Shown one piece after another: positions 7,983 to 29,832 of a stretch of 32,000 nt of DNA (positions within the stretch are counted from its first letter, which is position 1; every line of letters starts with the position of its first letter). The notes beneath the pieces are model-generated. The model saw only the letters and a list, made by a program, of their open reading frames with translations, did no database searches and was not told the origin of the DNA. The stretch lies in NCBI RefSeq assembly GCF_000018105.1, contig NC_009925.1:5040001-5072000 (forward strand), given 5' to 3'. The translations under genes were made by a program, and so were the position numbers. Source of the DNA: Acaryochloris marina MBIC11017 (lineage in GTDB: Bacteria > Cyanobacteriota > Cyanobacteriia > Thermosynechococcales > Thermosynechococcaceae).

Positions 7983-10799
7983 CTACCGAAACCCCCTTAC
8001 GGCCCAGTAGCCCGATAGGGCTGAAGTTATGCCAGAGGTGAGAGCAATGGCAAATAGCCACCAAGCTGCGATCGCAGCGGACTGACGAACTTTATCGGCC
8101 TGACGTTGGGTGTCTTGTTTCAATTCACGGGCCTGCTGTTGCAGCTCGGTTTGCAGTTGATCGACTTGGTCTAAGAGTTGCTGCTGGAGTGCTTCAGCCT
8201 GTTCAGACAGTTGGTGTTTGACGGTATCTTCTAAGTCATCGCGGGTATGGATGATTTGTTGGTAGGTGGATTGGGTCAGTACGGAGATGCGATCGCGAAT
8301 CTGCTGCCAAGAGGATTCTGTCAGTAATTCAGTGGGTGCTTTTCGGGCAAAATCTTGAAGACTGTCCCCGATCTGAGAAACCTCGATATGGGGTAGGGCA
8401 TCACTTAGCGTTTCCTGGAGTTGAATCGACCCTGCATAGGGAAGCGAACTCAGTATCTCTCGGACCTTAGTCGCTACGGTGTCCAGAGAGGATTGGGCTT
8501 GTTTCTGCAAAGATTGAGCTTCCTCTCCTAGCTTTTCCCAAGTTAAAGCAAGCTGCAATGAAATTTGTTCCATTTCTGCAGCCGTTAAATCTTTCCGCTC
8601 CTGGAGTAGAGCAATGATTTCAGACTGGCAAGGAAGCTGGGGGAATGGGTTTGGTGATGAACTTCCCATATTGACTTCCTCTAAAAGGCACTTCAAGTCT
8701 TGTTCTATAGATTCAATCTTTGTAAGCGCAGCGCGATCCTGATATTTGAGATAGCGTTGGAGCTGACCTTGCCAATCTTGAGCAGTGCGTTGCGTCCGAC
8801 GAGCCCAACGGCGAGGAAATTTGGCAATCTGCTGCCATTCTTCTTGCAGGGTCGCCAGGATTGAGTTCAGATTTTGGGGGGTAAGATCGTACTCGTCTTG
8901 TAACTCCTGAGCCAGTGACATCCAGTCCAGTTGTCCCAGATATTGGTTGAACACAGTTAAACCAGATGTCGGTTGATCGATCAGTTGCATCAGTTGAGGC
9001 TTGAGGTCTTCTAAGGTTATGGACTGAACATCCGGCCCTTGCAACTGCTCAGCAATGATGGTCTTAAGTCGTTTGTGAATAGATGGTGGAGCTGGCTGAA
9101 TCGAATCGGGTAAAAGATGTTGCCAGTTTTCAGAGATTGCAGCTAATAGTGCTTTTCGTTTCTTGGGTTGGAGACCTTTACGCCGTTTCAAGATTTTTTG
9201 CAGAGCGTCAAGGTCTGGCGGATAGGAAGCCAGCATTGGAGTTGGAATGGGAATCTCTTCAATTAAGGATTTCAGTTTCTGTTCAATCCCCTCTGGACTC
9301 AATTTGCTCAGGGTGGTGTAGCGGCAATAAGACTCCAGTTTTTGTTGGATCTGATGGAGGTGCTCCCGTTCAGGCGGCTTCAGGTCTGAAGAAGGCTGTA
9401 CTTGATCCAAGATATTGAGGCGCACCCGATTAAGCACGTTGGCAATTTTAGCCAGTTGATGATCAGGTAAATCCTGCCGTTGCTGGAGGAATTCCTGGAT
9501 CTGATCGGGGGTGAGGAGAATTAGCTGTTGGTGAACAAGTGATGGATCCGCTGCAGGGTCATAAAGAATATCTTTGAAGTCAACCTCAATAATGTCCGGC
9601 TGCAGATTCCATGGGGGTGTGTTTAATAGGTAGTCTTCAACGTCCAACTGGATAATATTGATCGGTTGCTTGGACTCAGATGAACCCGTCAGTTTTTGCT
9701 GAGTCGATTGCAGGACCTGCCAAATTCGCTGTACGTCCCAGTCCGATAAATCAACTCGTCGGAGAGCAGTGCGAAGTAGCCCTTTGAAATCAATATCCTG
9801 TAACGTGCTCCAGGAATGGGAGGTTTCTAAGGGGGCGAGTTGCGTGGATAAGGATTCGGATTGTAAGTCCGATGGATCTGCCGTTTGCAGAAAGTTTTTG
9901 AGATCTGTGACAGGGGCCGATTGCTGAGGGTGTTCTGGAACTGGGTGTGGGTCGTTTCCCACCTCTTGAGTTAGCTTTTGAAGCTGCTGCTGAAGTTCTT
10001 CCAGTATGGGCTGAGGGAGGTTTAGCCGATTTTGCAACTCTTCTACGATCTGCCCCAAATCGATCGTGTGATTTTCTGTCGTATTGGCAATCACCTCTTC
10101 TGCAATTTGCGAGAGATGGGTTGCTTTAGAGGGGGTTTCAGACTTCAGCTTAGCTAGAGTGCTCTCAAATACAGGAGAGAAGTCCATGTCCTCCAAAGCC
10201 TGGATTAGCTTAGAATGTCCTATCACGTCTGGATCTTCATCAGCAGAGCTTGTGTCTGATGATGTGGGATTGAAGAGTTGGCCGACGGCTGCAAACAGTC
10301 GTCGTAATCCTGCGCGAGTAAACCCCAAGACCGTATCGGCGATAGTCCCCACTGCTGATGTGCTCAACCAAGTGAGCAGAATCAGATAAACGGCCCAAAC
10401 TAAGCCCCCTAAAATTGCCCCTAGCCATGGATCGCTTACCTGACTGAGTTTGACTGCTAAATAACAAGCCGCAAATAACACTCCATCAATGGAGAGCATA
10501 ATGGCCAAGCCTGCTGCGACACCGATCAGCGCAACACTACCAAAGCTAGCGTCTTCAGGTTCTGGTGGCTTATCTGAAGTTGGGGGGTTGGGTTTCAGGT
10601 TAAATATGGATAACCCAATGGCAATACCAAAATTAGCCAGCAATAACTGGAAAGCGAGTCCGAATAAAAGACCCGCTAAAACAACAACGATAATCTGTCC
10701 ACCGGAGAGTATAGTGGCAGAGTCTAGACGAGAATTTAGCAAGGCTCTGTTGACGGTACTGATCATGGCCCTCCCAGAGAATGCATAGTCCTGAAACAT
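7983..10799 (-). CDS. Large membrane-anchored coiled-coil protein (hypothetical)
   Basis: 938 aa. Hydrophobic helices occupy residues about 40-165 and the extreme C-terminus (AAIAAWWLFAIALTSGITSALSGYWAV). The roughly 700 aa between them are Gln/Leu/Glu-rich and helical. Confidence 0.8.
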   Translation of the reverse strand: MFQDYAFSGRAMISTVNRALLNSRLDSATILSGGQIIVVVLAGLLFGLAFQLLLANFGIAIGLSIFNLKPNPPTSDKPPEPEDASFGSVALIGVAAGLAIMLSIDGVLFAACYLAVKLSQVSDPWLGAILGGLVWAVYLILLTWLSTSAVGTIADTVLGFTRAGLRRLFAAVGQLFNPTSSDTSSADEDPDVIGHSKLIQALEDMDFSPVFESTLAKLKSETPSKATHLSQIAEEVIANTTENHTIDLGQIVEELQNRLNLPQPILEELQQQLQKLTQEVGNDPHPVPEHPQQSAPVTDLKNFLQTADPSDLQSESLSTQLAPLETSHSWSTLQDIDFKGLLRTALRRVDLSDWDVQRIWQVLQSTQQKLTGSSESKQPINIIQLDVEDYLLNTPPWNLQPDIIEVDFKDILYDPAADPSLVHQQLILLTPDQIQEFLQQRQDLPDHQLAKIANVLNRVRLNILDQVQPSSDLKPPEREHLHQIQQKLESYCRYTTLSKLSPEGIEQKLKSLIEEIPIPTPMLASYPPDLDALQKILKRRKGLQPKKRKALLAAISENWQHLLPDSIQPAPPSIHKRLKTIIAEQLQGPDVQSITLEDLKPQLMQLIDQPTSGLTVFNQYLGQLDWMSLAQELQDEYDLTPQNLNSILATLQEEWQQIAKFPRRWARRTQRTAQDWQGQLQRYLKYQDRAALTKIESIEQDLKCLLEEVNMGSSSPNPFPQLPCQSEIIALLQERKDLTAAEMEQISLQLALTWEKLGEEAQSLQKQAQSSLDTVATKVREILSSLPYAGSIQLQETLSDALPHIEVSQIGDSLQDFARKAPTELLTESSWQQIRDRISVLTQSTYQQIIHTRDDLEDTVKHQLSEQAEALQQQLLDQVDQLQTELQQQARELKQDTQRQADKVRQSAAIAAWWLFAIALTSGITSALSGYWAVRGFR

Positions 10800-13676: not shown

Positions 13677-14939
13677 CAGGGCGACCGCACATAGAAGTTA
13701 ACAAAGCATTCGAATTAGGAAGAGGTGGAGGATAATGCCTCAAAAGCAACGCTCAGCAAGCCATGACATCCTCTCCCTTTGCCTCAATTATTGAACACTT
13801 CAGCGACTTAGACGACCCGAGAGCAGCCCACCGCATAGAGTATTCGCTAGAAGATATCATCTTCATCACCCTATGCGCTGTCCTTTGTGGAGCAGATAAT
13901 TGGGTGGAAGTGGCCAACTATGGTTGTTCCAAAGCCCAGTGGTTAAAGCAATGGATAGCATTGCCAAACGGTATTCCCTCCCATGACACCTTCGAGTGGG
14001 TCTTTGCCAGATTGAAACCTCAACAATTGCAGCAGTGCTTTCTCAATTGGACTCAAGCCATCTATCATCTGAGCGCAGGAGCACTGATTGCCATTGACGG
14101 TAAGACGCTGCGGGGCGCGATTGCAACCGGTGAGCAGCGCAGCTTGATTCACATGGTCAGTGCATGGGCCAGTCACAATCGTCTCGTTTTAGGTCAACGC
14201 ACCGTTGAGGAGAAATCTAATGAGATTACGGCTATCCCTGAATTACTGAAAATCCTAGAGCTTGAAGGAGCTTTGGTCAGTATTGACGCGATGGGCTGTC
14301 AAACCGCGATTGCCGAGACGATTATTGAGGGCCAAGGGGATTATGTGTTGGCCCTCAAAGGCAATCAAGGTGATTTATATAACGATGTGGTGCAACTGTT
14401 TGACCATGCTTGTCAGACTCAATTTCAGGGGATTGAGCATGATAGCTATCAAACCGTCGAGAAAGGGCATGGGCGAATTGAGCATCGCACCTATTGGACA
14501 ATGGGGCAAACCGATTACTTACTGGGGGCTGAGCGTTGGGCTCAATTGAAGTCGATTGGGTGCGTTGAATCGTGTCGTCGTCAGCCAGGACACCCAGGCA
14601 CACTTCAGCGGCGCTATTACCTTTTGAGCATTGAGAGTGATGCACAACGGTTTGCCGATGCTGTGCGCTCTCATTGGGGGATTGAAAACCAGTTGCACTG
14701 GATTTTGGATGTGGGATTTCGTGAAGATAAACTGCGTGCCTGTCAGGGATACAGTGCTCAAAACTTATCCGTCATTCGTCATATTGCTGCTAATTTGTTG
14801 CAGCAAGAGTCAACGGCTAAATGTGGGGTTAAGGCAAAACGGCTCAAGGCAGGTTGGGATGATGACTACCTGGTCAAGATCCTCAGCGCTGCTGCCAAGG
14901 GAATACCTGCTTCATGAAGAACTATGTGCGGTCGCCCTG
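13677..14939 (+). mobile_element. ISAs1-family insertion sequence, apparently intact
   Basis: Perfect 18-bp terminal inverted repeats: CAGGGCGACCGCACATAG (13677-13694) and its reverse complement (14922-14939). They are flanked by the identical 10-bp direct repeat CAGAGATCCA (13667-13676 and 14940-14949). One transposase ORF lies inside. Confidence 0.9.
13763..14917 (+). CDS. ISAs1-family transposase (H-repeat-associated type)
   Basis: 384 aa. The N-terminus FSDLDDPRAAHRIEYSLEDIIFITLCAVLCGADNWVEVANYG and the later IDAMGCQ and HWGIENQLHW blocks are typical of ISAs1 transposases. Confidence 0.9.
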   Translation: MTSSPFASIIEHFSDLDDPRAAHRIEYSLEDIIFITLCAVLCGADNWVEVANYGCSKAQWLKQWIALPNGIPSHDTFEWVFARLKPQQLQQCFLNWTQAIYHLSAGALIAIDGKTLRGAIATGEQRSLIHMVSAWASHNRLVLGQRTVEEKSNEITAIPELLKILELEGALVSIDAMGCQTAIAETIIEGQGDYVLALKGNQGDLYNDVVQLFDHACQTQFQGIEHDSYQTVEKGHGRIEHRTYWTMGQTDYLLGAERWAQLKSIGCVESCRRQPGHPGTLQRRYYLLSIESDAQRFADAVRSHWGIENQLHWILDVGFREDKLRACQGYSAQNLSVIRHIAANLLQQESTAKCGVKAKRLKAGWDDDYLVKILSAAAKGIPAS

Positions 14940-16280: not shown

Positions 16281-16976
16281 GTGTTCGAGGCGAAAGTGCG
16301 TCAGATTTGTCAACTGTATGACTCAGCAGCTGAATTGGCAGCTCAACAGATTCACCTTGTCAGTACGGATGAAATGACGGGCATTCAAGCGCTTGAACGA
16401 CTATACCTAGACCAAGCCATGAAACCAGGGCAACCACGTCGCTTGGAATTTGAATATAAACGGCACGGTACCCTCAGTTTGATTGCCAACTGGCACGTGG
16501 CTCTGGGAAAGGTGATTGCGCCTTCTATCGGACCCACTCGAAAAGAGTTTGACTTTGCCAATCATATTGCCAATACCGTTGAAACAGCACCGGACGATGG
16601 ATGGATTTTTCTACTCGACCAACTCAATACCCATCGCTCTGCTTCCTTGGTGCGATGGGTTGCTGCTTGTTGCGGTATGGATTCAGAGTTAGGTGTTAAA
16701 GGTCAATCCGGTATTCTCAAATCGATGGAGACTCGCACAGCTTTCTTGAGCGACCCCAGCCATCGGATCCGATTTGTTTATATCCCCAAACATACCTCCT
16801 GGCTCAATCAGATTGAATGCTGGTTTAGTATTTTGGTGCGTCGATTGATTCGTCGAGGCAATTTCACCTCCAAGGATGATTTGCAACAGCGCATCCTCGA
16901 ATTTATTGAGTATTTCAATCACACGATGGCCAAACCTTTCCAATGGCAATTTAAGGGATTCCAACCTCGACTATAG
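16281..16976 (+). CDS. IS630-family transposase, DDE catalytic part (orfB)
   Basis: DDE-type blocks are present: LVSTDEMTG, FLLDQLNTHRS and PKHTSWLNQIECWFS. This frame is already open from 16203 and reads ...EAQLQPHRSRYWLNANPEDPEVFEA, the usual continuation of orfA. It is displaced by +1 relative to orfA. Confidence 0.85.
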   Translation: MFEAKVRQICQLYDSAAELAAQQIHLVSTDEMTGIQALERLYLDQAMKPGQPRRLEFEYKRHGTLSLIANWHVALGKVIAPSIGPTRKEFDFANHIANTVETAPDDGWIFLLDQLNTHRSASLVRWVAACCGMDSELGVKGQSGILKSMETRTAFLSDPSHRIRFVYIPKHTSWLNQIECWFSILVRRLIRRGNFTSKDDLQQRILEFIEYFNHTMAKPFQWQFKGFQPRL

Positions 16977-19600: not shown

Positions 19601-21718
19601 ATGTTGAGTATCAGCATCAAAGTTCTTCCGCTAACGTCGGCTACATTGATTTTGCTGTCTCAATACACCCCTGCGATCGCAGCGTCAACCTGGATGCCGG
19701 AGTTTGATCCGGGCAAATCAGTCTATGTTGATCCAGCTTTGTCAGGGCATCCTATTGCCCCCTTCCAGTTCTCTCCCAAATTGGAGACTCAGCTCTCCCA
19801 GGAATCCAAAGAAGGTCTGCGCTATTTTGTGGTGGCGGCCCAACAAGGTAATGAGCCTATCCCTTCAGGTAAGCCCTTGGGAGTGGCAAAAGTCGATGAG
19901 CTGTTGTCAATCTGGACCACTCGCCCAGGCTTTCCCCGAGAGAACTATGTTGTCATCTTCTGGGTTCGTAAGCGTGTGAGTGTCTATAAAGGCTCAGTAG
20001 GAGTTAATGCGGGTAAAGCTGGTCGGGAAGCAGGTGTGCTTCCAGCACGGCTCTCCAGTCCCACTGGACTGGTCATTCCGGCGTTAAAAGCCAATATGCC
20101 TGCCGATCCTGAAGGGGCAATGATAGATATCGTCACCAATATTGAAAATCAAGTTACATCCTACCGAGAAACACAGGTCCGGCGTCAAAGAGCTGCTAAA
20201 GCCCGGCAAGAGCAGGAGCGGGTTGCTGCCCAAGAACGGGAGCAGTTTAACCAAAATCTTCAGTCCTGGTTGCAAGCATTCGTCAATGCGCTCCCATTTG
20301 TGGGAGGTATGGGTGGAATTGGCTTCATCCTGATGAATGGACGGCGGCGGAAAGCCAAGGCTCAAAAGCTAATTAATGAATGGTCAACCCTCTGCCAAAA
20401 TACCTCAAATCTTTATTTAGAGGTAGAAAATAATGAGCTACCGAAACTCCAGGCACTCCCCTTAGACATTGATGAGATGCTCAAGGCCAAGTTTGACCTA
20501 CTAGTGCATCGCTTAGCAGAATTTATGGCCTGGTCATCGGTTGCCAGCGAATTAGTCACCCAAGCTCAAGCCTTGTTAAACAAAGGGAAGTCTCGTCAAG
20601 CGATCTACACTCTAACGAAAGACAGTGTGATCGTTGAAAACAACAAAGTCCCAGTGGTTCTCGCCAGTTTACGTGGAGGGATCGATATTGCCCAAACGTT
20701 GATGGCTGATGAGCTTAAAAGTGGCCTAAACGATCAATGGCAATCCATAAAATCGGCTTTGAGCGAACTGCTCTCTATTCAACAAAGCTATTTGGAACTA
20801 TCCCAGAAAGATATATTCACAGTCCTACTGAAGCGTCCAGAAGAAATTTTAGACAAGCATATTCCAGAACTTAATCGTTATGGACTCCATCAAGGGGCCT
20901 TTGTGAATTCATCTCATGGGTTTGAGAACTGGGTAAGCGAATATGGGCAACTGATTCAACAGACTGAACTAGAATTCACATCCTCGCAAATCGTGAATTC
21001 AGTAGAGAACCAAAAGAAAGCAATTGAAATGCTAGATCGACTGGCATCTCGTATTCAACAAGCCGTCATGGATAAGAGAAAATGCGAGAAGGTGACCCAC
21101 CAGAATTTTTCTGGCAAGAAACTGGCAGAAAAAATTGCACAAGCTTCGACAGCCCTTGAGCAAGTAAAGACCCACTTCCCCCATGAGCCATACCTGCGAT
21201 ATGAAGCAAATGTGGAAAAAGCCTTAGCCGTGAAGAACGAGCAGTTTCCCCAGAACCACGCTCAATTTATTCAGGCTTATCAACAGAAGTATTTTAGTGA
21301 TGCTCTCAAGCGACTAGAGCAGACTCGCACTCTAGAAAAAGATTGGATGATGACCCTTACCCGAATTGTTGACTATCCAGTGAGACTTCAGGAAAAGAAA
21401 CGAATGCTGGAGAGGCAGCTAGAAAGCATTCAGCGCCGCAACCAAGCGTTGCAAAGTCGGCATCAGGTAGAGTTTGGCACCCTGGCTTGGAATTCATCAT
21501 CTCTGGACAGTCTGGAGAGCAGAATCGATGCACTTGAATATTCTGTCTCACGAGCAGAGGACGAACAACAGCGGGAATCATCTTCAAGCAGCTCTCTCTG
21601 GTCTGACGATAGCTCTTGGAACTCAAGTAGTGGATCGGATTTTAGTAGTTTTAGTGGTAGTGACTACGGTAGTAGCGGCAGCGATTATGGTAGTGGCAGT
21701 GGGGGTGGAGATTATTAA
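19601..21718 (+). CDS. Signal peptide + TPM-like domain + TM helix + long helical domain + Ser/Gly/Asp/Tyr tail (hypothetical)
   Basis: 705 aa. There is a signal-like N-terminus (LTSATLILLSQYTPAIAAS), and residues about 70-190 loosely resemble a TPM (YgcG-type) domain. One TM helix (ALPFVGGMGGIGFILM) is followed by RRRKAKAQK. The C-terminus is ...SSSGSDFSSFSGSDYGSSGSDYGSGSGGGDY. Confidence 0.75.
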   Translation: MLSISIKVLPLTSATLILLSQYTPAIAASTWMPEFDPGKSVYVDPALSGHPIAPFQFSPKLETQLSQESKEGLRYFVVAAQQGNEPIPSGKPLGVAKVDELLSIWTTRPGFPRENYVVIFWVRKRVSVYKGSVGVNAGKAGREAGVLPARLSSPTGLVIPALKANMPADPEGAMIDIVTNIENQVTSYRETQVRRQRAAKARQEQERVAAQEREQFNQNLQSWLQAFVNALPFVGGMGGIGFILMNGRRRKAKAQKLINEWSTLCQNTSNLYLEVENNELPKLQALPLDIDEMLKAKFDLLVHRLAEFMAWSSVASELVTQAQALLNKGKSRQAIYTLTKDSVIVENNKVPVVLASLRGGIDIAQTLMADELKSGLNDQWQSIKSALSELLSIQQSYLELSQKDIFTVLLKRPEEILDKHIPELNRYGLHQGAFVNSSHGFENWVSEYGQLIQQTELEFTSSQIVNSVENQKKAIEMLDRLASRIQQAVMDKRKCEKVTHQNFSGKKLAEKIAQASTALEQVKTHFPHEPYLRYEANVEKALAVKNEQFPQNHAQFIQAYQQKYFSDALKRLEQTRTLEKDWMMTLTRIVDYPVRLQEKKRMLERQLESIQRRNQALQSRHQVEFGTLAWNSSSLDSLESRIDALEYSVSRAEDEQQRESSSSSSLWSDDSSWNSSSGSDFSSFSGSDYGSSGSDYGSGSGGGDY

Positions 21719-22407: not shown

Positions 22408-22884
22408 ATGGTCCAATACACCCTGAAAGAAGACCCAGAAGCAGTGATCAAGATTCCTGGTAAGGACTCCAAAAAGGCTCGCGAAAAAGCTATGAATCAA
22501 CTGATGGACTTGATGGATAGTGGAAAACTTAAAACCTCCCTCAATCAAGGCTTTAGTCCCAATGACTTCATTGAAGTCCAGACGACGGTTCCAACTAAGC
22601 CGTCTCCCCAGGAAGATGAAGTTGCTCAAGCGGTGCAAATCTTAAATCTCCTTGCCTCTCTCAAGTTGAAGATGCAGGAGTTGCAACAACAGGCCTTGAA
22701 AACTCGGGCAATTGTCGATTTACTATTCTCGGATGAACCCATTTCAGAAGAAGACGTTTTGCAGTTGAAAGAAGGGTTTAAAGTGCTGAAAAAATTTGCT
22801 CAAGCCAATATTCAATATCAGGAAACCCGGAAACGAGCTGAATCGGCAAGAGCTATTTTAGATCGGGCTTTGCAATCTAAGTAA
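22408..22884 (+). CDS. Hypothetical protein
   Basis: A 158-aa ATG-initiated ORF, charged and helical. No family recognised. Confidence 0.6.
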   Translation: MVQYTLKEDPEAVIKIPGKDSKKAREKAMNQLMDLMDSGKLKTSLNQGFSPNDFIEVQTTVPTKPSPQEDEVAQAVQILNLLASLKLKMQELQQQALKTRAIVDLLFSDEPISEEDVLQLKEGFKVLKKFAQANIQYQETRKRAESARAILDRALQSK

Positions 22885-22952
22885 AGGCTGGATAGGTACC
22901 GAGTATTGCGCCTCAATCATCCTGGGTCTGCTGGCAAGGCGACTGGCCGTTG

Positions 22953-23129
22953 TTAACGAGAAACTTCTTCACCCATCAGGGATGCGGCAATCGTCGCGAA
23001 TTGATTGATGCTCAGAGAAATACGTCCTTCCTGTGGGTAGGTGATGAGTTGAGTGGTGGTTAGACTCTCTGTCAGTTGCCTAATCATTTTTATGGGCACG
23101 TTGCGGTCTTGTTCACCGTAGAATCCAGA
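22953..23129 (-). pseudogene. Orphan C-terminal fragment of an alpha/beta hydrolase (58 codons + stop)
   Basis: My own translation of the minus strand is SGFYGEQDRNVPIKMIRQLTESLTTTQLITYPQEGRISLSINQFATIAASLMGEEVSR*. This is the G..D..vP (catalytic Asp) to GH (catalytic His, here GR) segment of alpha/beta hydrolases. A TGA lies directly upstream and there is no start. It is below the ORF-track length cut-off. Confidence 0.65.
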
Positions 23130-23721
23130 TCAAGGATATTTGAATTTCTTCTAAATTGAAGTCCCACTCATGGGTATATAAATACTTCTTTGGCAGTTTT
23201 GAAGAAGTTATCTATTTATCTTGCATTATCTTGAGCACATTTTTAAATAAACTTAATAACCAAAACAACACCAAAGAGCACAAAAAAGCATTTTTATTCT
23301 GATTCTTTACTTATAGGCTTCTATATAGATAGAAGCCCAATTAGATGCTGCGTTGGTGTTGAGGATTCTGTTAGTTATACTTCTGAGAGTGAATTTTGCC
23401 AAATTATTCGATTATCAATAGCATTTATCCCCTACTAACTCTGGGTTCTAGTCTAATAAACATCATGCAGCGCGATGCTCAGGAATAAGTATTGTGTAAG
23501 CGCTTTAAATTTCTGTTCGCGCCCCTGATGACATGGTTGCTAGGAGATGAGGGATGCAACCAGCTCATAACAAAGGACTCTAATTTATTGCATAAGTAAT
23601 TTTGCTGTAGAGCTATATCTAGATACGGATGAACCAATCAAGTGGATTGCTGTAAACACAAGAAGGGAAATTTGAGTAAGCGCTGCGCCAAAGATTTTGC
23701 ACTTAATAGTCAACTAAAAAT

Positions 23722-24765
23722 ATGCTATATCTTGAGCCCAAATATATAGATGCAGTAAAAAATGTTTCACAAGCTGCTGACTTATACTCTCTTTTGCAAA
23801 ATGCGATCCAGCTTGAGCATTCAACTATTCCACCATACTTAACTGCAGCATATAGTCTGAAACCTGCAAACAGCGAAATAAGGCGAATCATAGCTAACAT
23901 TGCTGCAGAAGAAATGTTGCATATGGCAATTGTTGCAAATATACTTAATGCGATTGGTGGATCCCCACAAATTTCTATTCCGGAATTTATTCCAAAGTAT
24001 CCAACTACATTACCGATGGGCATCATTGGTGGATTAGAGGTTGGGTTAGAAAGATTCTCCAAAGACTTAGTAAAGAATAAGTTTATGGAAATTGAGCAAC
24101 CGGAGAATCCTATTTTCGAAGAAAATGATTCTACCTCAACTGGGGCTTCAAGTTCTGATCTCGTAACAATTGGCGACTTCTATCGGGAGATCATAAATAA
24201 AATAAGTGAACTTGGAGATGATATTTTTACTGGCGATCCTGAATTACAGGTTGTCATGGGTGCGGGATTTCCCATTAGTCAGCTCTTTCCAATTACAAAT
24301 AGTGATACAGCAATTAGATCTCTTGAGTGGATTATTAAAGAGGGTGAAGGGACAACTAGACTACCCTTCGATGATGAAGATGAGCCAGCTCATTATTATC
24401 AATTTGAGGCAATTTTTGAAGGCCGCCAGCTTGATCCAGATGCAGAAGAAGAAGAAGAAGGGTATCCTTACACAGGTCGAGAGATTCGCTTCGATCCCTC
24501 AGAAGTCTGGGACTTTCCTAGTAACCAAAAAGCAGCTAACTATCCAGACGGTTCAGAAGAACGCAGGAGAGTCGATCAATTTAACCTAGCTTATTCAAAT
24601 ATTCTACGAGTCTTACAAGAGGCCTTCAATGGTAAACCAGAAGAAATAGGTGAATCAGTTTTCCTGATGGGAGGACTTAGAAGATTTGCACGAGATGTTG
24701 TTTCTAGGACTGATCCAAGGACAAACATGAAATGCGGGCTTACCTTTGAATTTATTGAAGAGTGA
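23722..24765 (+). CDS. Ferritin-like domain protein (VioB/RebD-type ferritin-like fold)
   Basis: 347 aa. LLQNAIQLEHSTIPPYLTAAYSL and AAEEMLHMAIVANILNAIGG (E...ExxH) are typical of the Pfam Ferritin-like family. There is an acidic insert (DPDAEEEEEGY). First gene of the low-GC operon. Confidence 0.8.
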   Translation: MLYLEPKYIDAVKNVSQAADLYSLLQNAIQLEHSTIPPYLTAAYSLKPANSEIRRIIANIAAEEMLHMAIVANILNAIGGSPQISIPEFIPKYPTTLPMGIIGGLEVGLERFSKDLVKNKFMEIEQPENPIFEENDSTSTGASSSDLVTIGDFYREIINKISELGDDIFTGDPELQVVMGAGFPISQLFPITNSDTAIRSLEWIIKEGEGTTRLPFDDEDEPAHYYQFEAIFEGRQLDPDAEEEEEGYPYTGREIRFDPSEVWDFPSNQKAANYPDGSEERRRVDQFNLAYSNILRVLQEAFNGKPEEIGESVFLMGGLRRFARDVVSRTDPRTNMKCGLTFEFIEE

Positions 24766-24836
24766 GAAATGCATATTTTTCGCAATTATTCTAGATGTCA
24801 ACAACACAAATAATGCAATCAGAATAGGAGAAAATA

Positions 24837-26042
24837 ATGGCTTTCCCGAGCGATTTTAGCAATGTTGAAATTTGCAAGATTCATCCTGCAATTGGTATTG
24901 CTAGAGTATCTAATAATGACGATTTCTATATTTTCGGAAATGATCCAGGAAATTACAAATCAGGTGGCTTAATAAAGAGGCAGGCTGTTCAATTTAGAAT
25001 TTTTGTCTATGGAGAAAATAATGTCGGTCTTGGAGAGTTGACACCTCAGGTCATGAGTGATCTCGGTATTACAGCAATTTGGTCTGCTAAGGTAGCAAAT
25101 CGAAAGATTGCTAGATTGGAAGGTACCCCATTAAGCGGCAATGAGTTTGTCATCTCTGCTGAGGCCACATCAAACGATGCAAATAGTGGACAACTTGTTG
25201 GTTCGTTACCAGACTTTGATGAAGGCTCTGCAATACCTTTAGGCCAAATTACACGTGAAGGCGTGTTCATCCCTCCAAAAGGTGGTGTCTATAGGAAATC
25301 ATCTGGTGTTGAAATTGAGCCTTATCCTGCATTATCTGCACAAGTTGCTGACACAAGTTGTGATGGTTCAGTATCAGTGAACCTCACTATAGATGGGGCT
25401 GGACAAATTGAAGTTCTACCTGCATGTATCATAGTTGCTCCACAAGACTTCTCTCCTGATACAAATGAAGGATATACACTAAATGAATATCTAAAGGATG
25501 CTTTAGATATTCCACTGAAAAGAGAGTTGCCACCTGTTGACAATATACATAATCAGACTGCACGTGAAATTGATGAAGAAGCTCTTAAAACTGGAAGTGC
25601 TGATTTTGCTCCTGGATATGAAGTTTCATTAGGTGGGCGTGGTGAAGTTTTAGATATTAGAAATCTTGTTTATAGAAGTCAAGATGATCCTAGGATTGAT
25701 CCTCGAGAAGTAAGAATTCTCTACAAGAATAAACAAAACAAGTTAGAGCCTCGTGGAGCAGTACCAGGACAGTTGACTAGTGGTTTATGTTCTTCATGGC
25801 AAGGTGATTTTACAGCTTGTGTGGGCTATTGGGTAGAACATTTGCCACCAAACGCCTTCTTGGATGAGGACGCTTCAACAGAAGTTCGTGTTTTCAGAAA
25901 GCAATATTCTGATACATCTTCATCAGCTGAAGAATTGCGAACAGGTGAAGAATTTAATATAGGAGTAGATAAAGTTGGTATCGTTCGTTTGAGAGAAAGT
26001 CGAAAAGTAGAAACAGAACGTGATCCAGGAGATGATATCTAA
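24837..26042 (+). CDS. Short LodA/GoxA-like protein (putative cysteine-tryptophylquinone oxidase)
   Basis: 401 aa with AGGAG 8 nt upstream. N-terminal blocks are CKIHPAIGIARVSN, IKRQAVQFRIFVYG, IWSAKVANRK, CDGSVSV and APQDFSPD. The C-terminal block is LCSSWQGDFTACVGYWVEHLPP. These match the LodA N-terminal domain and the WQADFxxC...YWWPP quinone-site region as I remember them. Confidence 0.7.
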   Translation: MAFPSDFSNVEICKIHPAIGIARVSNNDDFYIFGNDPGNYKSGGLIKRQAVQFRIFVYGENNVGLGELTPQVMSDLGITAIWSAKVANRKIARLEGTPLSGNEFVISAEATSNDANSGQLVGSLPDFDEGSAIPLGQITREGVFIPPKGGVYRKSSGVEIEPYPALSAQVADTSCDGSVSVNLTIDGAGQIEVLPACIIVAPQDFSPDTNEGYTLNEYLKDALDIPLKRELPPVDNIHNQTAREIDEEALKTGSADFAPGYEVSLGGRGEVLDIRNLVYRSQDDPRIDPREVRILYKNKQNKLEPRGAVPGQLTSGLCSSWQGDFTACVGYWVEHLPPNAFLDEDASTEVRVFRKQYSDTSSSAEELRTGEEFNIGVDKVGIVRLRESRKVETERDPGDDI

Positions 26043-26152
26043 GCTTAGAATCAATCAGTTGCTAATCCTTTACTGGAGAATCTTTCTTAGGCCATGGATA
26101 GGTGATTGCAACTGATTCTCCTTCGATACTAATCATTGATTGTAATCAGGCA

Positions 26153-27514
26153 ATGATACAAATCATGTCCCAATACTCCTCTAAGTTAAAGATGCCGAAT
26201 GTACATCTGTTTCGAGCAGAAGAGCATTCTATGCTGCTATCTATTGAGCAAGGTTCAATATATGAAATCGATGATATTTACGCTGAGATGCTCGATCGAT
26301 GGATGGAATTTGGTGAAGTAGAAAGAGTGCATCAAGTATTATCGGCAAAGGGAATACATCTGAATTCAGTTCCTCCTGAGGCTCCACCTAAATCTATTCC
26401 AATTCATGCACTCTCTCTAGCCATAGCTCAAAAATGTAATCTTGGTTGCACCTACTGCTATGCCCATCAAGGTAGCTTTGGTGGCAATGAAGGTAGTATG
26501 TCTTTTGAGGTCGCGAGGAATTCTATTGATCTCTTGTTGAAAGGAACAGAATCTGGAGAAACAGTTTCCTTAGCCTATTTAGGAGGAGAACCTTTAGCCA
26601 ATCGTTCTGTTTTGCAGAAAACAACAGAATACACTATTGCCAAAGCTTCTTCAGTGGGAATTAAGACAAACTTCTCATTGACAACGAATGGAACATTGTT
26701 GACTGTTGAAGATGCAGAGTTTTTTAATAATCATGGCTTTTCTGTCACGATTAGCATTGATGGAAATCAAGAAAAACATGATTTCCTAAGACCATTTAAA
26801 TCAGGAAAGGGAAGTTACAAAACGGTCATAGAAAAAGTAAAACTTTTATTAGATATTCCTCACCGACGTTGTCGAGTATCCGCAAGAGTTACAGTGACAC
26901 CTGAAAACTTGTGTTTGGAAGAGACTCTGGACAAACTCGTTTCACTCGGCTTTGATAATGTCATGTTCTCTCCAGTTCTGAAATCACCAACTGGCCTACA
27001 TCAAATGGGAGAATTTGAATTTGAAGTGCTGCTAAATCAAATGATAGAGTGTGGCCAAAAATTTGAGCAGAATTTTGAAGATCACAAGATCTATCCCTTT
27101 GCAAATATACTGAACACGCTTCAACGAATACATCATTATAGATGTGACGCTTACCCCTGTGGCGCAGGAGGAGCCTATTTGGGTGTTTCTTCAAAGGGAG
27201 ACTTGTATGCTTGTCATCGATTTGTTGATGATGCTCAAGGTTCAATGGGAAATATCGTAGATGGTGTTGATCCTGCTAAGCAAGAGAATTGGCTGGCGGC
27301 CAGAAATGTGCATACTCAGGAACCATGCAAGGCTTGCTGGGCACGATACTTGTGTGGAGGCGGTTGTCATCATGAATCAATTTACAGAGGTCGACCTGCC
27401 TGCGATTACATTCGCGGTTGGTTGCATTACTGTTTAGGCGTATATGTCAAGCTTCTTAAGATTAATCCTTCACTCCTGGATCAGATTTTGAACAACCAAT
27501 CTGTTTCTGGATAG
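26153..27514 (+). CDS. Radical SAM / SPASM-domain enzyme (anSME/QhpD-like maturase)
   Basis: CNLGCTYC (CxxxCxxC, nt 26435-26458), GGEPL, and a SPASM-type Cys cluster: CDAYPCGAGG...YACHRF...CKACWARYLCGGGCHH. The ORF is open from GTG 26102. The first ATGs are at 26153 and about 26192, so the start is uncertain. Confidence 0.9.
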   Translation: MIQIMSQYSSKLKMPNVHLFRAEEHSMLLSIEQGSIYEIDDIYAEMLDRWMEFGEVERVHQVLSAKGIHLNSVPPEAPPKSIPIHALSLAIAQKCNLGCTYCYAHQGSFGGNEGSMSFEVARNSIDLLLKGTESGETVSLAYLGGEPLANRSVLQKTTEYTIAKASSVGIKTNFSLTTNGTLLTVEDAEFFNNHGFSVTISIDGNQEKHDFLRPFKSGKGSYKTVIEKVKLLLDIPHRRCRVSARVTVTPENLCLEETLDKLVSLGFDNVMFSPVLKSPTGLHQMGEFEFEVLLNQMIECGQKFEQNFEDHKIYPFANILNTLQRIHHYRCDAYPCGAGGAYLGVSSKGDLYACHRFVDDAQGSMGNIVDGVDPAKQENWLAARNVHTQEPCKACWARYLCGGGCHHESIYRGRPACDYIRGWLHYCLGVYVKLLKINPSLLDQILNNQSVSG

Positions 27515-27522
27515 CTATCGAA

Positions 27523-28944
27523 ATGGGAACCAAGGACCAAACCACTTTTGATGTCTGTGTGATCGGTGGTGGTCCTGCAGGCTCAGTAGTATCCCATCGT
27601 TTGGCATCGTTAGGATATAAAGTATGCATAATTGAATCCCAAAAGTTCCCTCGACCTAACCATATTGGGGCTTCACTACTTCCCAGTACTTTGCCTTTAT
27701 TAGATTGTATAGGAGTACGAGAGTCTGTTGAAAATACGGGATTTCTCCTCCACGAGCGCACAATTGTTTGGTGGTCAGAGACTTTTCCTATATATAAAAA
27801 TCAACATGAGCAGCCTGGATTCCATGTGGATCGTGGCCAATTCGATCAATTACTTTTGCAGAATGCCAAAGAGAATGGAGTTGAAGTCCATCAACCAGCT
27901 CATGCATTTCGTCCGGAAAGGATCAAGACTCAGAAATGGCAGATTCGCATCCGTCAAGATGGAATGCAAAGAACGATACTATCTAAAATAGTAGTTGATG
28001 CATCTGGTGGGCGAAGTCTAGTTCCCGGACGCCGGATTCTAGCATCAGCTCCTCTTCTAGCTTTGTATGCCTATTGGAAAGGCACAAATTTTCAGACAAT
28101 TGAAGCACGTATTGAAGCGGGAGAAAGTGAGTGGTTTTGGTATGCACCTTTAAGTCAGAACAAAGCAGTTACTGCAGTTTTTCTTGATCCCAGTTGCTTA
28201 TCTCTAAACTCAAAACAAGGAATTGAAAATATATATCACAAGTTACTGAATCGATTCAGATTGTTCCCTGCTAAATTTATCAAAGGTATTGAGGGTAAAG
28301 TAAAAATATGTGATGCATCAACTCGGTATGCAGAGAACCCTATAGGAGACAGCTTTATTCGAATTGGAGATGCCTGCTTATGTTTAGACCCATTATCTTC
28401 TCAAGGTATTCAGTCAGCAGTAGCTTCAGGCTTGCAAGCTGCAATTATCATCAATACTTTTCTCAAATATCCTGAAGATACAGAATTGGCAATTTCCTTT
28501 TATAATGCTCGCCAAAAAGAAAAAAGAAACGAATACATAACAAAAACGGCTAGTTTTTATCAACAAGTCGCTGCTGTTCGTAATAAACTATTTTGGCATC
28601 AGAGGGCTACTTTTCCTGAAGGTCAATTAGCTCCTATTCTTAAGACAAAAAGTTTCGATGGTAATTGTAAAATTCAACTATCAGATCATGCATATATGAA
28701 CTCTACACCCATAATCGAAGGAAATAGAATTATCTCTAAGCATGCTTTATATCATGATATGTTATCTCGTCCAATAGCATTTGTTGGTGGAGTGGAAATA
28801 GTACCTTTGTTGAGAAAAGTTAGTCCAGGGACAACAATACAAGATATCTTACAGGTTTGGTCGAAGAATTTGCCAGTTGAGCTTAGCTATAATATTATGG
28901 CTTGGCTTTGGATTCGTAAAATCATTGTTCCTTTTCATCTATGA
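27523..28944 (+). CDS. FAD-dependent oxidoreductase/monooxygenase (LodB/QhpG/halogenase-like fold)
   Basis: 473 aa. FDVCVIGGGPAGSVVSHRLASLGYKVCIIE (GxGxxG), KFPRPNHIGASLLP, EWFWYAPL and IRIGDACLCLDPLSSQGIQSA (GD...DP..S.G). The start is 8 nt after the radical-SAM stop. Confidence 0.85.
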   Translation: MGTKDQTTFDVCVIGGGPAGSVVSHRLASLGYKVCIIESQKFPRPNHIGASLLPSTLPLLDCIGVRESVENTGFLLHERTIVWWSETFPIYKNQHEQPGFHVDRGQFDQLLLQNAKENGVEVHQPAHAFRPERIKTQKWQIRIRQDGMQRTILSKIVVDASGGRSLVPGRRILASAPLLALYAYWKGTNFQTIEARIEAGESEWFWYAPLSQNKAVTAVFLDPSCLSLNSKQGIENIYHKLLNRFRLFPAKFIKGIEGKVKICDASTRYAENPIGDSFIRIGDACLCLDPLSSQGIQSAVASGLQAAIIINTFLKYPEDTELAISFYNARQKEKRNEYITKTASFYQQVAAVRNKLFWHQRATFPEGQLAPILKTKSFDGNCKIQLSDHAYMNSTPIIEGNRIISKHALYHDMLSRPIAFVGGVEIVPLLRKVSPGTTIQDILQVWSKNLPVELSYNIMAWLWIRKIIVPFHL

Positions 28945-29010
28945 TTGATACTCGATTCTCAGAGTTGATTTCTCAACAGAAACTAAAGTTACTGATTGAT
29001 GCGTAAGTAG

Positions 29011-29109
29011 TCAAATAAAATAGCCATAAATCATGGCTTCACTCGTTTCTGGATAGAGTTCGTAATCCTTCCCCAAACGACGATAGCGATTCAGGCAACT
29101 AAAGGTCGT
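29011..29109 (-). pseudogene. IS5-family transposase C-terminal remnant
   Basis: My own translation of the minus strand is TTFSCLNRYRRLGKDYELYPETSEAMIYGYFI*. This is the conserved C-terminus of IS5-group transposases (..W..R.RRL.KDYE..PETSEAMIY..). A TGA lies directly upstream, so only about 32 codons survive. Confidence 0.55.
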
Positions 29110-29184
29110 GCATCAAAAAAATGTGGGATCTCGATTTACAAAGGGTTTCAGTCTTTTTGGAGTATCTCCTGTAAGCCTTTAGTG

Positions 29185-29832
29185 TTAGATGCCTGAGCGA
29201 TTGTTACAGATTTTTTCACACTTTTCTAATGCACAACCGATAGACTCCATGCAACCCACCTGCGCTAGGGCTGTATAGTCTGCTGGGGGCAGTTGGTTCT
29301 TGAATCTAGCTAACACTTTTTCTGGATCACCCTTGAGTGACTGTGCCAGGAAGGATTGCCAAAGTTGGTAGAGTATCGGCACTCTCTTCATAAAGAAGAA
29401 CATTATGCGGCTCATTGGGGAAAGATCTTCAGCAAGATCCATCTGCCATGCCCCAGAAACAATAACAGCAGAATGGAGTCTTTCAGGCATCTTGGCGACA
29501 CAGACTGCGACATATCCACTGCCGCCAGACATACCCAAAACAGAAAATTTATCTAAATTGAGTGCATTGGCAAGACACTCTATATCATTGACCCAGTCGG
29601 AGAATCCTCGGTGCGGTTGAAAATCAGATTGCCCAAGCCCAGGACGATCGGGGGCAATCAGCCTCATCCCAGCTCGCTGAATGTTCTCATTGCCTAATAC
29701 CAATGGCTCTAAGCGACAGGAGGGAGAACCATGAAAATAGAAAACGGGATATCCCTGAGGATCACCATATTCAGCGTAGGCTAACTGTCGCTGATCCGGC
29801 AGGGTGAGAAAAGTGGTAATTTCCATGGTCAT
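29185..29832 (-). pseudogene. Alpha/beta hydrolase, N-terminal 215 codons (truncated; decayed continuation to about 29112)
   Basis: VFYFHGSPSCR (oxyanion HG) and VLGMSGGSGY (GxSxG nucleophile elbow) are present, but there is no Asp/His segment. After an A6 run (plus-strand T6 at 29211-29216) the +1 frame continues SVTIAQASNTKGLQEILQKD*NPL*IEIPHFF, which is hydrolase-like with two stops. The missing C-terminus is the fragment at 22953..23129. Confidence 0.75.

Follow-up and report, generated by a model that had tools for sequence, protein, structure and literature searches.

The four-gene cassette

The stretch of DNA analysed here (the window) comprises 32,000 nucleotides of the cyanobacterium Acaryochloris marina MBIC11017 (contig NC_009925.1, positions 5,040,001 to 5,072,000 of the forward strand), and the coordinates below are those of the window. 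Four closely packed, co-directional genes on its forward strand span positions 23722-28944. The first open reading frame (ORF), ORF1 (23722-24765), encodes a ferritin-like protein of 347 amino acids that matches Pfam PF12902 at 248.9 bits. ORF2 (24837-26042) encodes a protein of 401 amino acids with a minimal LodA/GoxA fold. It is followed at 26102-27514 by a gene for a QhpD-like radical S-adenosylmethionine (SAM) enzyme with a SPASM domain (longest ORF, 470 amino acids; NCBIfam TIGR03906, 322.4 bits). The fourth gene (27523-28944) encodes a QhpG-type monooxygenase of 473 amino acids dependent on flavin adenine dinucleotide (NCBIfam NF049967, 285.7 bits; cut-off 240). The sections below are concerned mainly with the radical SAM/SPASM enzyme and its probable substrate, ORF2.

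The radical SAM/SPASM enzyme

The ORF at 26102-27514 begins with GTG, and its 470-residue product has cysteines at positions 14, 112, 116, 119, 257, 271, 317, 348, 353, 371, 409, 412, 418, 422, 434 and 444. A preliminary description, made from the DNA sequence alone, had placed the start of the CxxxCxxC cluster at residue 112 of the longest ORF, and the cysteine positions bear this out. The radical SAM [4Fe-4S] motif is formed by C112, C116 and C119 (26435-26458, forward strand), which are invariant in 101 homologues, and the Pfam Radical_SAM profile matched the protein at 66.6 bits (cut-off 29.5). The C-terminal third carries the SPASM set, C348 to C444 (27143-27433, forward strand), assigned from cysteine positions and the alignment as ligands for two auxiliary clusters. 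Its pattern is C353-x17-C371 with a Gx4C, C409-x2-C412-x5-C418-x3-C422 and then C434. In the numbering of the shorter, 453-residue product discussed below, C336, C354, C392, C395, C401 and C405 are invariant in the 101-sequence alignment, and C417 and C427 are nearly so; C317 (470-residue numbering), which lies 5' of the SPASM set, is nearly invariant as well. The SPASM arrangement of seven or more cysteines reported previously thus holds, with seven to eight SPASM cysteines conserved in the homologues.

The database gene call for this enzyme has 453 residues and starts at Met18 (ATG at 26153), and the aligned homologues are 455-465 amino acids long; Met18 is therefore the probable start, and about 94 amino acids would then precede the CxxxCxxC cluster. 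An AlphaFold model made from the 101 homologues had a predicted local distance difference test (pLDDT) value of 91.1 and a predicted TM-score (pTM) of 0.91. Residues 17-65 of the 453-residue protein (34-82 of the longest ORF; 26201-26347, forward strand) were modelled as three beta-strands (17-22, 25-30 and 35-39) followed by two helices (41-52 and 56-65), and the N-terminal domain reached block pLDDT values of 94-97. The whole model superposes on CteB (5WGG), a thioether synthase that bears a RiPP recognition element (RRE; RiPP, peptide synthesized on the ribosome and modified after translation), at E = 1e-26 and a TMq of 0.75 across 460 columns; the two proteins also matched by sequence (1.5e-53). 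Residues H18, L19 and F20 of the enzyme are nearly invariant in the alignment. As modelled, the N-terminal region is the ordinary leader- or substrate-recognition (RRE-like) domain of this enzyme class. The N-terminal extension of about 100 amino acids in the preliminary description is therefore real and has an RRE-like fold, but it is usual for the class and measures about 94 rather than 111 residues.

Among the family models, QhpD (TIGR03906) scored best, its 322.4 bits covering residues 53-467 against model positions 41-466. It was followed by PapB (NF047865; 285.8 bits, cut-off 340), the nif11-peptide maturase model (250 bits, below its cut-off) and the SCIFF maturase ScfB (TIGR03974; 242.8 bits, cut-off 425), while the anaerobic sulfatase-maturase model, anSME (TIGR03942), gave 122.7 bits against a cut-off of 349.45. 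The comparison of subfamily models that had been suggested earlier thus puts QhpD at the top and anSME far lower, with all scores under the cut-offs; NCBIfam release 20 contains no model dedicated to the radical SAM enzyme of this cassette. A sulfatase-type formylglycine maturase had also been considered, and in addition to the low anSME score, no sulfatase is encoded in the 32-kb window. The features expected of a QhpD protein, a CxxxCxxC motif and a SPASM domain with two sets of auxiliary-cluster ligands, are present. The setting of a qhp operon is not: only a QhpG-like gene adjoins, and qhpA, qhpB, qhpC, qhpE and qhpF are absent from the window. Similarly, genes for a dihaem protein, a gamma subunit, a subtilisin or an ABC exporter were neither found in the window nor conserved in 21 cassettes of the same kind.

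A predicted quinoprotein related to LodA and GoxA

ORF2 scored 47.9 bits with LodA_N (cut-off 26.3) and weakly, 17.7 bits, with LodA_C (cut-off 25), a domain that is called in many of its homologues. The homologues are named 'LodA/GoxA family CTQ-dependent oxidase' by NCBI (CTQ, cysteine tryptophylquinone). The AlphaFold2 model of ORF2 (pLDDT 94.3, pTM 0.94) was compared with the PDB by Foldseek, and the best 50 of the 51 matches at E <= 0.001 consisted entirely of GoxA and LodA entries (E between 4e-12 and 6e-9, TMq 0.4-0.66). ORF2 is about half the size of the LodA and GoxA enzymes, which have 680-780 amino acids, and is an equivalog of neither (LodA NF038172, 29.9 bits against 600; GoxA NF038173, 35.8 bits against 750).

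The predicted CTQ site, Asp324, Cys328 and Trp332, lies together with Cys318 in residues 316-332, GLCSSWQGDFTACVGYW (25782-25832, forward strand). This segment matches LodA RMACPWQADFFNC, which holds Asp512 and Cys516. In the phmmer alignment, PGQLTSGLCSSWQGDFTAC of ORF2 is paired with PGDLTKRMACPWQADFFNC of LodA, so that Asp324 falls on Asp512 and Cys328 on the CTQ cysteine, Cys516. In the long LodA-like proteins of the genomes the sequence is 'RWMAxPWQTDTASC...(15-25 aa)...P[T/S]FWPARVP', and in divergent members of the ORF2 family it is 'ACxCxYWPAQRP'; since Trp332 aligns with the tryptophan of both 'FWPARVP' and 'ACxCxYWPAQRP', it is taken as the CTQ tryptophan. The spacer from Cys328 to Trp332 is only 3-4 residues. 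ORF2 has five cysteines (13, 175, 197, 318 and 328), as had been stated previously, and C318 and C328 are the sole invariant cysteines among 110 family members, in which W82, Ser319, W321, Q322, D324 and W332 are invariant as well. From sequence and model together, ORF2 is predicted to be a CTQ quinoprotein of the LodA/GoxA type.

Since ORF2 lacks a signal peptide and the cassettes share neither a protease nor an exporter, the enzyme probably resides in the cytoplasm, in contrast to quinohaemoprotein amine dehydrogenase (QHNDH). An N-terminal 'MAFPxDLSDV', found in most cassette proteins and extending about 5 amino acids beyond the ordinary LodA-like start, was considered as a universal leader and rejected, as it is lacking in loci L020, L021 and L074. 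Glu291 was likewise set aside as a family-specific crosslink acceptor: the position is Pro in other LodA-like proteins, but these have Glu one residue earlier ('EPFR'), and the signal is accordingly weak.

The flavoprotein and the ferritin-like protein

The product of the last gene passed the cut-off of the QhpG model (NF049967) and covered positions 1-422 of its 423, whereas the LodB and GoxB models gave 141 and 121 bits. It also matched QhpG in the PDB (7CTQ, 5.5e-21). By homology, the flavoprotein is predicted to be a peptidyl-tryptophan dihydroxylase that serves CTQ formation.

ORF1 matched PDB entry 3hl1, 'ferritin like protein' (2.5e-11), and residues 663-816 of VioB. In 15 cassette copies E32, E63, E64, H67, E125, E209 and H224 are invariant, a set of Glu and His residues that suggests compatibility with a di-iron site, and the protein may be a di-iron partner of the system. 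In fungi, PF12902 ferritin-like genes have been reported as neighbours of lodA-like genes (PMC4417212). ORF1 contains a single cysteine, which is not conserved, and the ferritin-like gene is absent from loci L003, L011, L012 and L015. Three of these loci, which are alphaproteobacterial, have in the ferritin-like position a common protein of 370-540 amino acids with no Pfam match (L011 6875-7990, L012 2543-4165 and L015 6540-7988).

Distribution of the cassette

Genomes of 185,579 species, one for each, were scanned with a profile of the ORF2 family. The 79 distinct loci that this returned were each searched by tblastn, with the four proteins of the window as queries. A full-length LodA-like gene of about 400 amino acids was present in 18 loci, and in all 18 the radical SAM gene lay immediately 3' of it (415-600 bits, 44-62% identity) and was itself followed by a full-length QhpG-like gene. 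The ferritin-like gene was directly 5' of the LodA-like gene in a clear form in 13 of the 18; the match was weak in L007, and in L019 the copy lay 3'. The hosts include Leucothrix, Bradyrhizobium, Methylocystaceae, Methylobacterium, Stappia, Albibeggiatoa, Kangiellaceae, Glaciecola, Opitutus, Chthoniobacteraceae, Verrucomicrobiales, Thermoanaerobaculia, Planctomycetaceae, Flavobacterium, Deferribacteres and the cyanobacterium Aphanothece.

The remaining loci, with LodA-like genes of 470-1150 amino acids, were different: a radical SAM match was found within the fetched flanks of 0 of 61. In 56 of these 61 ordinary LodA loci there was a LodB-like gene whose match to the window flavoprotein was confined to residues ~8-365. 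The match to the flavoprotein was thus full length in the cassette loci but ended near residue 365 in the ordinary ones.

Exact-protein look-ups recovered the same cassette from a Bradyrhizobium metagenome-assembled genome, from two metagenome contigs and from a distant 400-residue representative. In Corallococcus exercitus (CP102577.1; locus L001, 5725-7997), the LodA-like protein is divided between two genes that overlap, and the order is a ferritin-like gene, a 467-residue gene with a weak LodA_N match, a 290-residue gene with LodA_C and the CTQ motif GLCSPWQNDYRECACYYW, the radical SAM gene and the flavoprotein gene. The separate 290-residue, CTQ-bearing gene recalls the separate gamma subunit of QHNDH. 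The distinct cassettes number 22 in total and come from at least eight phyla. In every one the short LodA-like gene is directly followed by the radical SAM gene, and the QhpG-like gene comes next wherever the contig is long enough. For 20 cassettes, the distance matrices of the LodA-like protein, the radical SAM enzyme and the flavoprotein were correlated with r = 0.66-0.73, a value that 0 of 2000 permutations reached; thus, the three genes travel and diverge as a unit.

The residue at position 318 of ORF2 tracks the radical SAM gene. The proteins linked to a radical SAM gene carry 'L-C-S-x-W-Q-x-D-x3-C-x3/4-W' without exception (22 of 22, the split Corallococcus gene included), while the LodA-like proteins without one at the fetched loci carry 'M-[A/G]-x-P-W-Q-x-D-x3-C' (59 of 59), with Ala or Gly in place of Cys318. 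In a search of 1.84 billion representatives at 50% identity, run with no word index, 1563 LodA-superfamily clusters were found, about 47 of them at E <= 1e-30; of the short-type representatives, the 28 in which the motif could be located all had Cys318.

Search for a precursor peptide gene

The preliminary description had seen no precursor-peptide gene near the radical SAM gene, and it had named a conserved small gene in homologous clusters as the finding that would speak against a protein substrate. All ORFs of at least 20 codons were listed in 22800-29250, and the gaps of the cassette held only unconserved ORFs of 20-52 codons. When ORFs of at least 25 codons from 21 cassettes were clustered, the four cassette genes were the only conserved families; the other conserved small ORFs were shadows inside them. 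A relaxed search of the cassette flanks returned only low-complexity chains from high-GC genomes. Overlaps of 4 bp between cassette genes are common, as in L014 with its stop/start pairs 7977/7974, 9245/9242 and 10591/10588. The earlier impression is thus upheld across 21 homologous cassettes, both for the missing precursor gene and for the lack of any conserved small gene in its place.

Proposed maturation of ORF2

The radical SAM enzyme is probably a protein maturase of a four-gene operon rather than a RiPP enzyme, one that would introduce a crosslink at Cys318 of ORF2 before CTQ is built by the flavoprotein. The preliminary description had proposed a full-length neighbour as substrate, in parallel with QhpD acting on QhpC, and this idea is supported, every computational test that was run having picked ORF2. 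The evidence for ORF2 as the target includes the top score of the QhpD model, the QhpG match of the next gene, the LodA/GoxA fold of ORF2, the conserved gene order with its frequent 4-bp overlaps, the absence of a conserved small ORF and the tracking of the radical SAM gene by Cys318. Where ORF2 and ORF1 had been left as two options, ORF2 is now favoured; ORF1 is an unlikely target, because its lone cysteine is not conserved and the gene is missing from some cassettes.

Whereas the gene assignments, folds, conserved residues and strict co-occurrence are observed, the steps of maturation are inferred, and the known QHNDH route provides the model for them. QhpD forms thioethers in QhpC between Cys7 and Glu16, Cys27 and Asp33, and Cys41 and Asp49, and the CTQ residues of QhpC are Cys37 and Trp43 (PMC8172795). 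Asp33 of QhpC corresponds to the active-site Asp that is conserved in tryptophylquinone enzymes, and QhpG modifies the thioether-crosslinked QhpC only while it is held by QhpD, in a QhpC-QhpD-QhpG ternary complex (PMC7876137). Radical SAM enzymes that group with QhpD form thioethers from sulfur to C-beta or C-gamma (PMC11002830). By analogy, the newly made ORF2 would be bound by the radical SAM enzyme, possibly via the RRE-like N-terminal domain. Cleavage of SAM would then yield a 5'-deoxyadenosyl radical that takes a hydrogen from the beta- or gamma-methylene group of an acidic residue (Asp or Glu) in ORF2, and a thioether would form between that carbon and the Cys318 sulfur, as in the chemistry of QhpD, PapB and CteB. 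Asp324 is the favoured acceptor, because the C318-x5-D324-x3-C328 spacing of ORF2 equals C27-x5-D33-x3-C37 of QhpC (residues from the literature); Glu291 is a second, weaker candidate. A search of the PDB with the CTQ segment of ORF2 did not retrieve the QHNDH gamma subunits, and the comparison with QhpC therefore rests on published residue numbers. While the radical SAM enzyme holds the substrate, the QhpG-like flavoprotein would dihydroxylate Trp332, by homology to the ternary complex, and addition of Cys328 to the oxidized indole would give CTQ. The product would be an active quinoprotein that oxidizes amines or amino acids.

Several observations weigh against this scheme. The radical SAM enzyme lies under the curated QhpD cut-off (322 against 453 bits), and its chemistry could therefore differ. 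The flavoprotein is, in pairwise comparison, closer to halogenases than to QhpG of Pseudomonas putida. A LodA-like cluster of 596 amino acids, P0287 (JGI 3300071358 contig, 5148 bp), reads 'LCVPWQSD', with Cys at the position of Cys318, and has a LodB-like neighbour of 364 amino acids and no radical SAM gene; LodA itself has a Cys one residue after this position. A Cys in this place thus does not strictly require a radical SAM enzyme. In addition, ORF2 shows no obvious cleavable leader for the RRE-like domain to recognize, and the 'MAFPxDLSDV' start is missing from three cassettes.

The alternatives differ in the substrate or in the chemistry that they assume. Were the radical SAM enzyme a classical RiPP maturase of the ranthipeptide or SCIFF-like kind, its short precursor would be unannotated or encoded elsewhere in the genome. 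The strong though sub-threshold scores with the PapB, nif11-peptide and SCIFF models (286, 250 and 243 bits) fit such a role, as does the RRE-like domain, which RiPP maturases use for leader binding, and small ORFs are easy to overlook. However, 21 cassettes and their surroundings to a distance of 3 kb contain no conserved family of small ORFs, the cassette genes abut or overlap by 4 bp, and every RiPP model remained under its cut-off. An unlinked peptide would also not explain the strict co-occurrence of the radical SAM gene with the short LodA-like and QhpG-like genes in at least eight phyla, and a RiPP role is considered very unlikely. Even less probable is a substrate other than ORF2 of full protein size, either the ferritin-like ORF1 or an outside protein such as a sulfatase or a QHNDH gamma subunit encoded at another place in the genome. 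In its favour, ORF1 usually lies upstream in the same transcript and the inspected DNA amounts to 32 kb of the genome, but ORF1 has no invariant Cys and is absent from four loci (L003, L011, L012 and L015), the window contains neither a sulfatase nor QhpA/B/C/E/F nor an ABC exporter, and the anSME score is far under its cut-off.

A different reaction on ORF2 itself is unlikely but deserves more weight. The enzyme might form the Cys328-Trp332 thioether of CTQ, a formylglycine at Cys318 or a carbon-carbon crosslink, or its main task might be to act as a scaffold for the QhpG-like enzyme. The chemistry of SPASM enzymes is varied and this one scores below the QhpD cut-off, and a largely structural role is conceivable in that QhpG needs QhpD as a substrate holder. 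Yet the nearest families (QhpD, PapB and SCIFF/CteB) all make thioethers from Cys sulfur to C-beta or C-gamma, and the CTQ thioether of QHNDH is not a product of QhpD. Formylglycine formation is opposed by the anSME score of only 123 bits and by the lack of a C-x-P/A-x-R motif in ORF2, while the conservation of the radical SAM and SPASM cysteine ligands argues for catalysis rather than for a scaffold.

Relation to known CTQ systems

To date, CTQ has been described in QHNDH, LodA and GoxA only, and it is formed by separate routes, QhpD/E/G on one side and LodB/GoxB on the other (2025 review, PMC11951088). The cassette shares features with both. As in the QhpD/QhpG/QhpC system, a radical SAM/SPASM enzyme with an N-terminal recognition domain adjoins a QhpG-type flavin monooxygenase, and the predicted target, a protein, has an additional Cys in its CTQ site, six residues ahead of the catalytic Asp. 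In contrast to QHNDH, the target is a LodA-fold enzyme of 401 amino acids instead of a gamma subunit of about 80-110 amino acids. It offers one candidate thioether Cys where QhpC has three, and a 28-residue leader is not evident. Nor does the cassette encode a QhpE protease, a QhpF exporter, a dihaem QhpA or a QhpB propeller, and its radical SAM enzyme is below the QhpD cut-off.

With LodA/LodB and GoxA/GoxB the cassette has in common the fold, the Asp-x3-Cys...Trp residues of CTQ and the position of the flavoprotein gene 3' of the quinoprotein gene. ORF2 differs from LodA and GoxA in its length of 401 rather than 680-780 amino acids and in its Cys-to-Trp spacer of 3-4 residues. The flavoprotein is of the QhpG type, about 470 amino acids long with a C-terminal extension, whereas LodB-type proteins have about 360. 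Moreover, and unlike in LodA/LodB, a radical SAM gene lies between the quinoprotein and flavoprotein genes, and ORF2 has the invariant Cys318. In a 2015 census of LodA-like proteins the smallest member had 481 amino acids, and radical SAM enzymes were unmentioned (PMC4417212).

The ranthipeptide (SCIFF) synthases CteB and PapB resemble the radical SAM enzyme in the combination of RRE, radical SAM barrel and SPASM domain, CteB (5WGG) being the closest solved structure, and in the expected chemistry, a thioether from Cys sulfur to C-beta or C-gamma. These synthases act on short Cys-rich precursors encoded next door, however, and no such gene is found in the cassettes.

The cassette can therefore be described as a LodA-fold quinoprotein served by maturases of the QHNDH type, a mix of the two known CTQ routes that is apparently undescribed. 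A full-text literature search, with subscription-only papers outside its coverage, returned no description of it. About as much speaks for as against the further proposal that this is a third route to CTQ, in which a QhpD-like radical SAM enzyme and a QhpG-like hydroxylase mature a LodA-fold enzyme with a thioether from Cys318 to Asp or Glu beside the cofactor. If it is correct, radical SAM thioether chemistry would reach beyond peptides and the ~9-kDa QhpC to an enzyme of full size, 400 residues long, and the enzyme would be a rare RRE-bearing radical SAM/SPASM protein that acts on a large neighbour without an evident cleavable leader. The QHNDH and LodA/GoxA maturation routes would no longer be separate lineages, and the cassette would link QHNDH gamma subunits to LodA/GoxA oxidases in evolution. 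Such a bridge fits with the CTQ part of the Corallococcus protein being encoded by a separate 290-residue gene and with the C-x5-D-x3-C motif common to both groups. The compact, apparently cytoplasmic system of three or four genes lends itself to heterologous studies of CTQ biogenesis. For genome mining, 'orphan' SPASM maturases without a precursor peptide may target adjoining enzymes.

Genomic setting

The cassette lies in an island of low guanine-plus-cytosine (GC) content, 0.37-0.43 against 0.45-0.52 in most flanking segments, and was probably acquired horizontally. An AT-rich, non-coding stretch of 837 bp (22885-23721; no strand assigned), with GC down to 0.37, precedes it and is presumed to contain the promoter region and the left edge of the island. 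No conserved ORF was found in this stretch, nor any match to it in the Rfam and tRNA scans of the window, and one weak promoter-like site occurs at 23396-23424. For the window as a whole, the Rfam, tRNA and promoter/terminator scans gave nothing informative.

The cyanobacterial HIP1 octamer GCGATCGC occurs six times in the window (1-32000), where 0.33 copies are expected; all copies precede position 19,700, and there are none in the island (~23000-29000), in line with a cyanobacterial host and horizontal acquisition of the cassette. Transposase genes of the DDE_Tnp_1 and DDE_3 families are located at 13763-14917 and 16281-16976, 6-9 kb 5' of the island. Two large ORFs without a Pfam match are also present, one of 938 amino acids at 7983-10799 (reverse strand) and one of 705 amino acids at 19601-21718 (forward strand), the latter with a C-terminal tail rich in Ser, Gly and Asp, SSSSSSLWSDDSSWNSSSGSDFSSFSGSDYGSSGSDYGSGSGGGDY. 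Downstream of the cassette, an alpha/beta-hydrolase ORF of 215 amino acids (29185-29832, reverse strand) covers only positions 2-127 of the 245 in the Abhydrolase_1 profile, and it may have been cut short at the island's right edge.

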